Shown: piece by piece, positions 33,001-36,000 of the stretch
How positions within the stretch are numbered: position 1 is the stretch's first letter
How the letters are laid out: each line of letters starts with the position of its first letter
DNA from: Escherichia coli O157:H7
GTDB lineage: Bacteria > Pseudomonadota > Gammaproteobacteria > Enterobacterales > Enterobacteriaceae
Assembly: GCF_013167455.1 (NCBI RefSeq)
Contig: NZ_CP038328.1
Reading direction: 5' to 3' (one strand)
DNA: 64,000 nucleotides
Position numbers: made by a program

Positions 33001-36000
33001 CTCCTGCTCCTGTTCCTGTTCTTGGCTTCGAAGCCCCTTAAAAGCCCCTTCGAAGCCCCTTACCGAATTTCGGCTATTATTCCGCCTCACATCCAGATGG
33101 AAATCCGTTTTATATCTGTCGTAAAACACTGACAGAAAAGCGTTTTCAGGTAATGATGCATACTCATTCCTGACACCTGCACAACGGTTATCGCCAGGCT
33201 TCAACGTTTCCCCAACCTGCCAGGCTGCCATTTCATGGACCCAGACCATCTCTGCATCATGGTCATAGCTACAAAAACCAGCTTCAACAGCCCTTTTAAG
33301 CCCCTTTGAAGCCCCTTCCAGACCAAGCCCGGTTTCATGAGCAAGGTATAAAACTGGCAGGTAATACAAACCCAGCATATTTGCGTGAGGGGATGTCATC
33401 AGGTAAAAAGCAACAACTTGCGCTTCTGCACCCGCCTTTCTAAGTTCTCTCCCCGTTTCTCCCAGCCAGAATCGCGGAGAAACTTTTGCGTAATCACGCA
33501 TGGCTACCTCATCTGGTGCCGAACCTTCCTCCGGATATAATCTGTGGTTCCCAATCGACAGAACCAGAGGAGGTTCGACATGTATTTTTTGAAAAGCCTT
33601 TATCAGGCTCATGTATTAAATGTTGCAGCAACAAACCGCTGGTGTAACAGCCCCGAAATGCTCCCGGATTACAGAGCCTGGCTGCGCGCCGAAACATACC
33701 TTCGTCTCGACATATTGATTAGCGAACTTCAAAAAGAGACTGCATCCATTCATAACCTTCAGGGTATCGACGCTGTTCGCATTCTGGTATCGCGCCATAG
33801 TGCTCTCTCAATAATTGAAGTGCGTCATCTCTCTTTTTCTGAACTGATTTTCTTGCTTCAACCAGCTCTGGAATCAGCGAATATCCCGCCGGAAGTGATC
33901 CAATACCCACCTCATGTTGACGAGCAGTTACAAGATGTGCCATACAACCAGCGTGCTGGATTGACTCCCTGCTCAGAGGCTGAATGGGATCACTCTCTGC
34001 TGAAGAAATACCAAGATTTGTATAATCCTCAATAAGCCCGGCACACGCTTCTGCATCAGCCAGCTTTATTCTGGTTTCCTTGCGCTGTTCTCTGGCTGAC
34101 AAACGCCAGAGCAGCGCATTAGCTTTATGTATCAACCACTCTGCCAGCTCCACATCAGATAAACCGCCACGCCAGATGTGCGGACTGTTTTCGTAAACGC
34201 TCAGTGTCAATTTTTTGTCATTACTCATATTTATTACCCAATTAATGCACAGCCAGAGTGTTTCCTGCCGGGCCACCACGATTCATCTGATCGAACAGAA
34301 CGATCGCTGATGCAACGAAATCATCAATATCTTTCACCAGCCGTTCCTTCGTCTCTACCAACTCCCGAAAATAAGCGGAACTGTGGCTGCGCATTCGGGC
34401 CACCAGCGGAGGCGGCATCGCTTTTTCGATCGCTGGTAACAACGCCTGAATTTTTTTAACCGCATCAGGAGTGTCTTTCTCCACCCAGCGGAAAATTTTC
34501 TGAGTATTGCGAGCCATGGCTTCCGGATGGCTGTCGTCATACAGTTCCGGGAACGTCATTCCCAGCTCGAAATACGCTTTGGTAATTTTCGCAGCCGGTA
34601 CTTTTTCGCCGTCCGGATGCGCCCAGGCATTCATCGCCATGCGGATGTGTTCATGCTTGATTTTCATGAATCAACTCCGGCGCATTTGATGTGTTAACCT
34701 TACATCCAACAGGTAAACCGTCGGTTGGGTTAGGATAAATATCTGGGCGGATTTCATGCGGGGTAACTTCCCACTTCATTAGTTGGCATAACGGAATTAC
34801 CTGCTTTGGGGGAACGCCAAAGCTAAACCATTGCCAAACAGTCTGTTGAGCGACCCCCATATAACGACCTATTTCAGCCTGAGTGTATTTCTGCCTAATT
34901 TTTTCGCGAGTGCTATCTAGCATTTTGCCCTCCTCTAAAAACTATAAGCAAAGCCTACAATAAAAAACTGTATGCAATCAACAGTTTTTTATTGTGATGC
35001 TTTTAACAGTATTTACCTGTAAAATTGAATAATGATGAGCGCCCTAGAAGTATCTATGTACAGAATCAGCAAGCTTCTTCAGGAAACTGGATGGAGCCAG
35101 GCTGAGCTTGCCCGTAGAATTGGTGTGACACAACAAACTGTTCAACAATGGGTCAGCGGTAAGGCTACACCTAAAGCCTCAAGTTTGGATAAACTGGTTG
35201 AGGTTTCAGGGCATCCATTGCATTGGTTTTTATTGCCTCCTGAAGAGTGTGAGCAAATTTTCACCCCTGACACGATGAAAATTGGTCCTCGCCAACGCGA
35301 ACTGCTCCAAGCTTTTAGTGCGTTTCCTGAGGAAGACCAAGAAAAAATGCTTCAAGAAATCAAAGACAAGAAAAAATCAATGGAAGAAACCATTGCTAGG
35401 TGGCTGGCGGCACAAAAAAGCCGCCGGGCGTGACCACAGTACAAGAAGAGGAGTTATGCCATGGGTACAGCCCTTTCTCCGATAGTTTCAGAATTCGAAA
35501 CTACCGAACAAGAAAACAGTTACAACGAATGGTTGCGCACTAAAGTAACGTCAAGCCTTGCAGACACTCGCCCCGCAATTCCACATGACGAGGTAATGGC
35601 TGAAATGGAAAATCTTATTGCTCAAATTGCTGTAACTAACAAGAGCGAGTAATGTTACCCATTTTATGGCTACCGTCTGCTCGCGATGATTTGCGCCAGA
35701 TCATAACTTACATCGCCAAGGAGAACCCACCGGCAGCACGTAGACTAAAAATACGCATTGAAACATCGGTATTACCTCTATCTGAGCATCCGTACTTATA
35801 TCCACCAAGCGAACGGGTTTCTGGATTGAGAGAGATCGTGACCCACCCTAACTACATAATCCTGTACAGAGTAGCTGCTTCAAGCATTGAGATTGTAAGC
35901 GTGACACATTCTCGGCGACAATTTCCCTTCTCTATCTGAGTTGAACAATTTTCATACTCCCTCTTTCGAGGGATTTTTTTGCCCAAAACAACAATTAAAA

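Follow-up and report, generated by a model that had tools for sequence, protein, structure and literature searches.

Phased 11-bp repeats inside a prophage initiator gene of Escherichia coli O157:H7 as a predicted phage replication origin

The window analyzed here, a 64,000-nucleotide stretch of Escherichia coli O157:H7 DNA (contig NZ_CP038328.1 of RefSeq assembly GCF_013167455.1), contains a prophage gene that carries two clusters of a short repeat phased at 11 base pairs (bp), and the question raised by this locus is why such arrays should lie within a coding sequence. The initial annotation had described the gene as an O-like replication gene and the layout as that of a phage origin embedded in its initiator gene. 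In the present analysis the clusters are predicted to serve as iterons, the origin of phage replication being embedded in the gene that codes for its initiator, a reading that we regard as probable. The predicted origin-in-initiator layout is supported by the phasing of the repeats, their conservation at the DNA level, their co-variation, the matches of the gene product to replication-initiator families of PHROG, and the adjacent gene for a DnaC-like helicase loader. The arrangement is known in kind from lambda ori and from oriL of phage SPP1; the origin of this phage family was previously undescribed. The gene and its repeats are as follows.

32410..33501, minus strand: initiator (replisome-organizer-like) gene, 363 amino acids, from the open reading frame (ORF) list, PHROG and the RefSeq coding sequence (CDS)
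33287..33317: N-proximal cluster, with exact 9-mers at 33298-33306 and 33309-33317 and a degenerate in-phase copy at 33287-33295
33031..33061: linker-proximal cluster, with three exact 9-mers in 11-bp phase at gene nucleotides (nt) +440, +451 and +462
33020..33028, coding strand: in-phase half-site AAGCCAAGA, 11 bp past the last full unit

Both clusters lie inside the initiator CDS. The exact 9-mer AAGCCCCTT has five copies in the window, all on the plus strand (starts 33031, 33042, 33053, 33298, and 33309), and no further exact copy was found on either strand; in 100 dinucleotide-preserving shuffles the motif occurred 0.55 times on average and never as often as five times. When one mismatch was allowed, the motif was not enriched in the window (13 found versus 15 expected); the signal is the exact, phased copies and not loose matches to the motif. 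Units inside a cluster follow one another at exactly 11 bp, and arrays of period 11 were reported by Tandem Repeats Finder at 33031-33062 and 33291-33317. Aligned in register at a distance of 256 bp, the clusters form a direct repeat of 42 nt with 79% identity, in which a sixth, degenerate copy can be recognized at ~33287-33295. The window thus holds five exact copies, one degenerate copy, and one half-site, all spaced by 11 bp within the clusters, in agreement with the initial annotation, which had counted five to six 9-bp copies at this spacing in two clusters (33031-33061 and 33287-33317).

On the coding (minus) strand the exact N-proximal units read AAGGGGCTT, at gene nt +184 and +195, and this unit core is a pseudo-palindrome, AAG-GGG-CTT. 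The peptides encoded by the repeats on this strand are RGF-EGAF-KGL, specified by the linker-proximal cluster in three different reading frames, and EGAS-KGL-KRA, so that the recurring KGL and EGA peptides noted earlier (FEGAFKGL and EGASKGLK) were recovered. With a period of 11 bp, successive copies fall in different frames, and the repeat therefore belongs to the DNA and not to the peptide.

Selection on the repeats was examined in 86 related loci (numbered with the prefix L), which reduce to 76 distinct genes with 55–100% protein identity from phages and prophages of Escherichia, Shigella, Klebsiella, Acinetobacter, and Ralstonia and from viral contigs with unidentified hosts; for codon analysis, 41 homologues thinned to <85% DNA identity (median 63%) were used. 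Two AAGGGGCTT copies are located at gene nt ~+184 and ~+195 in all 76 distinct genes. In the set of 41, the codons of the N-proximal cluster are GAA (40/40), GGG (40/41), GCT (30/40), AAG (38/38), GGG (37/41), and CTT (39/40), and all other conserved Gly, Ala, Leu, Pro, Thr, Val, and Arg columns have codon entropies of 1.4–2.5 bits (Mann-Whitney p = 8.5e-5). The Ser codon of the half-site is AGC in 39 of 39 homologues, and the third base of the codon that precedes it is always A, with an amino acid that varies among R, A, G, P, S, V, L, and Q. The same alignment columns of the linker-proximal cluster contain either AAGGGGCTT, encoding EGASKGL (9/41, among them the window, the Klebsiella phages, and phage Fraca), or its reverse complement AAGCCCCTT, encoding EAPSKPL (31/41). 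At least five flips of orientation are required on a neighbor-joining tree, one of them between the window and a sister Shigella Shiga toxin (Stx) phage. Whole 11-nt repeat units have been gained or lost among relatives, with a shifted linker frame in L057 and L073, and the functional phage Fraca, for which a complete genome is available, has the exact motif only in its initiator gene. Together these sequence patterns indicate that the repeats are kept by selection on the DNA itself, independent of frame and orientation. Absence of the repeats from homologous genes, or loss of their phasing, is what the initial annotation had named as telling against its proposal; the outcome was the opposite, with repeats that are present, phased, and synonymously conserved in the 76 distinct homologues.

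More distant relatives carry other versions of the motif. In Klebsiella phage ST13-OXA48phi12.4, which has a homologue with 31% identity, the class B motif GAAAGGGTT occurs in two pairs, one with 11-bp spacing at the corresponding N-terminal codons (PERVSKGF) and one, read in another frame, close to the linker (LKGSERVL); the two clusters are 232 bp apart. This pattern holds over 69 distinct sequences; the class B members are L088-L168, L177, and L178, and in class B relatives the half-site becomes AACCAGGAA. Class B also includes metagenomic relatives in which the linker cluster is inverted, namely L177 (ERVSKGL versus ETLSKP) and L178, and in L176 one array is of mixed orientation. In class C, represented by L175, the motif GAAACGGTT is present at both cluster positions. 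As judged from these alignments, the two clusters change together, and with the amino acid sequence encoded at the N-terminal site, through three motif classes. A scan of viral contigs with the class B protein returned mostly near-identical sequences, and the wider diversity came from a protein database combined with contig look-ups; the 150 best matches of an exhaustive profile search were all class A, adding to the size of the family and no new motif classes.

The part of the protein encoded by the N-proximal cluster was located in a structural model, from which the following features were assigned.

33082..33501, minus strand: predicted N-terminal winged-helix domain, residues 1-140
33282..33323, minus strand: predicted recognition helix α3 (LEGASKGLKRAVEA), codons 60-73, overlapping the N-proximal cluster

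The modeled N-domain has an α1-β1-α2-α3-β2-β3 topology, matches the structures of known winged-helix DNA binders, and is confidently predicted to be a winged helix. Its secondary structure comprises a helix at residues 50–57, a second at residues 60–73, and then a β-hairpin wing. Helix 3 is the usual recognition helix of winged-helix domains. Codons 62–68 (EGASKGL), which constitute the N-proximal cluster, form the start of helix 3, so that one of the presumed target arrays coincides with the coding DNA of the presumed reading head. Helix 3 is inferred to read the repeat motif. The peptide encoded by the linker cluster falls in a low-confidence region of the model (predicted local distance difference test scores of 50–60) and is probably disordered. 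The N-domain belongs to a family with 10,202 cluster representatives at 50% identity in the exhaustive profile search, for which there is no Pfam model.

In Acinetobacter-type loci (L003, L051, L052, L077, L079, and L083-L086) a third 11-bp-phased cluster is present in non-coding DNA just 5' of the ribosome-binding site, 16–60 nt upstream of the initiator start codon, and runs into the Shine-Dalgarno sequence (for example, AATAAGCCCCTTCAAAGCCCCTTCAAAGGAGAT). This upstream cluster is not found in the window. It may serve as an autoregulatory operator, and its contact with the ribosome-binding site of the initiator is an argument for a different reading of all the repeats, namely that they are operator sites only, through which the initiator or another phage protein acts by repression, roadblock, or handcuffing, with the true origin located elsewhere. 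Plasmid Rep proteins commonly autoregulate through their iterons, and sites in a coding region could block RNA polymerase. The role of operator is, however, compatible with that of origin, since iterons often serve both, and the repeats probably fulfil it in addition. An upstream cluster is lacking in the window, the position at the boundary of N-domain and linker together with the low-complexity tract matches the proven origins of SPP1 and lambda, and no other repeat array was found among the loci examined, the motif having no further copies in the window or in the genome of Fraca. We consider it unlikely that the repeats are operators alone.

The inverted orientation of the linker cluster in most relatives could point to a role for single strands, in which the clusters would pair mutually, whether in mRNA or in unwound DNA, and thereby control translation, stability, or priming. 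The two clusters are reverse complements in the majority subfamily, and in the predicted minimum-energy fold of gene nt +150 to +500, for which z-scores range from -2.2 to -7.0, 18–20 of the 20 bases of the N-cluster are paired to the linker cluster. However, such pairing is impossible (none of the 20 bases) in the window and the other members with direct clusters (Klebsiella phages and Fraca), in which conservation of the motif is just as strong; direct and inverted forms both occur in class B, one array mixes orientations, and no Rfam family matches. The lone Rfam match, to a small nucleolar RNA model with E = 0.97, is attributable to chance. Pairing between the clusters is thus very unlikely to be the reason for their conservation. 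As a separate observation, the RNA fold of 33001-33351 in the window, the same gene interval, is more stable than its shuffles (z = -3.6) although the clusters cannot pair mutually, and self-pairing of the GCTTCGAAGC junction palindromes may be the source of this stability.

Beyond the last repeat unit the gene passes into a linker and then into a C-terminal domain of different history, and the features of this part, with the spacer between the clusters, are the following.

32980..33024: (CAR GAR)n hexamer tract encoding a (QE)n linker, from Tandem Repeats Finder (period 6) and composition
33062..33286: 225-bp spacer between the clusters, from composition
32412..32981, minus strand: C-terminal-domain segment, a separate mosaic block, from Megablast

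The (CARGAR)n tract, which adjoins the last repeat unit, is 83–87% purine on the coding strand and only 50–63% AT and continues into an A-run to ~32945; by analogy with the known origins it is a candidate DNA-unwinding or helicase-loading region. An AT-richer patch of the spacer (~33060-33160, GC 0.37–0.42 in the window) is of uncertain role and was not relied on as an unwinding element because the AT dip is not conserved over the family. In most members the hexamers are read as (QE)n, but L057 has TGTGE, L073 (GA)n, and L177 (GT)n, because losses of 11-nt units shift the frame, and in L175 (class C; gene nt ~+396 to +430) the tract is on the opposite strand, with CTCCTG/TTCCTG in the coding strand and a (PA)n/(PV)n linker. 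Any flexible linker is evidently tolerated, yet the tract persists as DNA, which suggests a DNA-level role. Within the (QE)n tract, the evidence for a bias toward codons ending in A was mixed and alone is no proof of selection at the DNA level; the frame-shifted and inverted versions are better evidence. Tract length ranges from 8 to 27 codons over the family. The tract also behaves like a microsatellite, in that near-identical relatives (the window compared with L008, L009, and L011) differ by one (QE) unit.

A Megablast search of sequenced phages covered only query positions 3–572, with 91–92% identity in several E. coli phages, and in those phages no near match to the N-domain part was found. 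The mosaic break (~32975-32985) falls exactly at the (QE)n linker, and in homologues the same N-domain is joined to differing C-domains, the partner being a DnaC-like loader in some and a primase-helicase in others. The repeats and hexamer tract may accordingly act as a recombination joint for the mosaic gene. If that were their only role, the boundary DNA would be kept as homology for swapping C-domains and downstream helicase or loader genes and would have no function in binding; the position of the break, the shuffling of partners, the gain and loss of 11-nt units, and the variable tract length all agree with such a patch. It leaves unexplained, however, the second cluster in the helix codons, the concerted change of the motif, the upstream clusters, and the strict 11-bp phasing. 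Recombination more probably follows as a by-product where an origin is conserved, and we view a patch with no binding role as highly improbable. That the repeats merely reflect a conserved EGAxKGL peptide, their DNA sequence having no role, is scarcely credible: EGASKGL is nearly invariant in the protein and lies inside the predicted DNA-contacting helix, but synonymous sites are frozen within the motif and not in codons elsewhere in the genes, copies occur in three reading frames and in non-coding DNA, and the linker copy switches to EAPSKPL in a probably disordered segment with the DNA motif kept on the other strand.

In the preferred reading, that of iterons in an origin, the winged-helix N-domain of the 363-residue protein would bind the units of both clusters. 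The bound clusters, 256 bp apart and each presenting its units on one face of the helix, would organize a nucleoprotein complex, and the DNA would open in or beside the purine-rich (CARGAR)n tract beyond the last unit; the model for this step is the AT-rich tract found in both lambda ori and SPP1 oriL. The exchangeable C-terminal domain would then recruit the adjacent DnaC-like loader with host DnaB, a step suggested by the gene order. In lambda, the C-terminal part of O recruits the helicase loader. A more specific proposal is that the initiator is self-referential: the DNA of its recognition helix (EGASKGL) would be one of the arrays that the helix reads, so that the two could change only together, and the hexamer tract, which is retained in three reading frames and both orientations, would be an independent DNA element that acts in unwinding or loading and also as a recombination joint. 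Under this self-referential reading, the 9-mer would be frozen over phages of Escherichia, Klebsiella, Acinetobacter, and Ralstonia, and helix and site would differ at once in the three classes, because reader and site are the same nucleotides. We put this proposal forward tentatively, as having somewhat less than an even chance of being correct.

The identity of the initiator was examined by profile searches. Its true start is M38 of a 400-residue ORF, and the PHROG profiles begin at residue 38; the RefSeq CDS WP_001205823.1 has the same coordinates. The PHROG matches are to families described as 'DnaD-like helicase loader' and 'replication initiation protein' (E values of 1e-148 and 1e-125). 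The whole initiator matches no Pfam family at E ≤ 0.01, and a Pfam search with the 41 N-domains at E ≤ 1 returned five unrelated weak families (best E value 0.016), none of them Phage_rep_O. Membership of the lambda O family was rejected, as the Phage_rep_O profile was unmatched in the Pfam scans, and the GenBank label 'DNA replication protein O' on some homologues is annotation by analogy. The description 'O-like' therefore stands for function and layout but not for sequence, which matches no Pfam family, Phage_rep_O included. Identity with DnaT (primosomal protein I) was also rejected, on a score of 17.8 bits for NCBIfam PRK02854 against a cutoff of 201; the resemblance to DnaT is weak and confined to the last 24 residues of the initiator, which correspond to the C terminus of DnaT, and a sequence search of the Protein Data Bank found DnaT chains (E values of 0.019–0.07) through the same 24 residues. 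Homology to the SPP1 initiator G38P was rejected as well, since hhalign of G38P with the family alignment gave a probability of 1.25%. The predicted origin would thus function like lambda ori and SPP1 oriL, with an initiator that by sequence lies outside the lambda O, G38P, and DnaT families.

A close parallel in layout is SPP1 oriL, which sits in gene 38; the replisome organizer G38P binds its repeats (AB-box iterons), and an adjoining AT-rich element unwinds (PMC5737612 and PMC6316719). The StyI-HindIII interval of SPP1 gene 38 was found to be 356 bp, in agreement with the published minimal oriL fragment, and it contains 11-bp-phased repeats from +359 to +405 followed by a purine-rich tract (80% AT) that encodes a low-complexity linker rich in N, D, and E. 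The two loci are alike in that the origin, predicted in the case of the window, is in the initiator's own gene, 11-bp repeats lie at the boundary between the N-terminal DNA-binding part and the linker, a purine-rich linker-encoding tract directly follows the repeats, and helicase-loader and helicase genes are immediately downstream. They differ in the AT content of the tract (80% versus 50–63% in the window) and in the arrays: SPP1 has one in-gene array and a distant oriR, whereas the window has a second in-gene array at a distance of 256 bp, and one of the two lies on the recognition-helix codons.

In lambda ori, iterons and an unwinding tract occupy the central part of the O gene, and the N-terminal part of the initiator binds the origin (PMC7466680). 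Comparison with ori-lambda, which the initial annotation had recommended, showed that the layout is mirrored, with iterons inside the initiator gene and a position in the early right operon downstream of cro/cII-like genes, but there is no sequence homology to lambda O, and the size and spacing of the units differ. Lambda ori has four 19-bp iterons and an AT-rich tract (six iterons in the Stx phages 933W and P27), whereas the units of the window are 9-bp cores at 11-bp spacing in a bipartite layout, and their partner is a DnaC/IstB-type AAA+ loader and not lambda P, with no match to Phage_rep_O.

A much closer relative is the replication module of Shigella phage 75/02 Stx, the Eru4 representative (PMC8951638), with an initiator that is 71% identical (labeled 'primosomal protein I') and a loader that is 84% identical. 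The window has the initiator and the AAA+ loader in the same order downstream of the immunity region, and on this gene pair its module is assigned to the Eru4 type. The motif and the N-proximal cluster of the Eru4 modules (Shigella phage 75/02 Stx and POCJ13) are the same as in the window; the linker cluster of the Stx phage, however, is inverted and encodes EAPSEPL instead of EGAFKGL. The description of the Eru types reports no origin and states that knowledge of the replication proteins of Eru phages is wholly lacking (PMC8951638). No description of repeats or of an origin for the Eru4-type module was found in the Eru papers or in broader literature searches, and the 9-mer itself, when sought in full texts, turned up only in primers and unrelated sequences.

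DnaD-type replisome organizers that are remotely homologous in the N-domain were identified by tblastn with the class B protein in Geobacillus virus E2, Bacillus phage PK1, and Exiguobacterium phage vB_EalM-137 (E values of 4e-5 to 1e-4). These Firmicute phages have tandem 11-bp palindromic or pseudo-palindromic units at the same boundary of N-domain and linker, preceding an acidic low-complexity linker, but the motifs are GATACGGTATC or TATCGATAC, the C-domains are DnaB_2 or Phg_2220_C, and a second cluster in the recognition-helix codons was not detected. What distinguishes the present family is the pair of arrays 256 bp apart, the orientation-labile pseudo-palindromic 11-bp units, the location of one array on recognition-helix codons, and the hexamer tract conserved as DNA.

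Several observations weigh against an origin. The upstream non-coding cluster of some relatives fits an autoregulatory operator equally well, and each cluster has just two to three units. One iteron sequence is kept over Escherichia, Acinetobacter, and Ralstonia, which is unusual for iterons. The search for a nearby AT-rich element, another check suggested by the initial annotation, succeeded only in part: the purine-rich (CARGAR)n tract adjoins the repeats, but no strongly AT-rich unwinding element is conserved family-wide, and the AT dip that the window has in the spacer is not shared family-wide. Within 32800-33700 there are no DnaA boxes (≤1 mismatch) and no GATC sites, and a single one-mismatch match to the integration host factor (IHF) consensus is found nearby. 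DnaA boxes, GATC sites, and IHF sites are not required for lambda-type origins. The comparison with SPP1 is an analogy of layout only. Finally, the prophage lineage of the window may be defective, as judged from strain PV15-279 (L087, positions 1-1890), which has an identical initiator region and in which ISEc8, an IS66-family element, adjoins a truncated DUF977 gene.

The initiator region is 100% identical to that of E. coli O157:H7 prophages. RefSeq labels the gene product 'hypothetical protein', yet the region is found in 476 of 5,426 complete E. coli genomes, mostly O157:H7, and relatives of this initiator run the replication of Eru4-type Shiga toxin phages. The analysis supplies a concrete candidate origin, with a defined motif, two arrays, and a candidate unwinding tract, and offers a rule for finding origins throughout the large N-domain family. 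The repeats also provide a clean natural case of DNA-level selection overriding codon choice within a gene, and the coupling of helix and site, if true, would be an unusual constraint on the evolution of initiator specificity.

The gene adjoining the initiator on its downstream side is the following.

31657..32403, minus strand: DnaC/IstB-like AAA+ helicase-loader gene, directly downstream of the initiator

The loader matches Pfam IstB_IS21 (3.9e-19) and NCBIfam PRK12377 (1.6e-153), and its score against the DnaC equivalog, 298.7 bits, is under the 357-bit cutoff of that model. Downstream of the loader, a DUF1627 gene and a DUF977-like gene occupy 30436-31635 on the minus strand. YdaS/YdaT-like and cI/cro-like genes are upstream of the initiator. 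Two long ORFs, 33580-34035 (plus strand) and 33719-34279 (minus strand), overlap in antisense, and each has its own database family: the former is the 'ECs1072 family phage-associated protein' of RefSeq, and the latter matches PHROG 8304 (E value 6e-120). It is likely that at most one of them is a real gene. A RelB/RelE-type toxin-antitoxin pair is encoded at 35461-35939 on the plus strand, between the immunity region and the early-left prophage genes.

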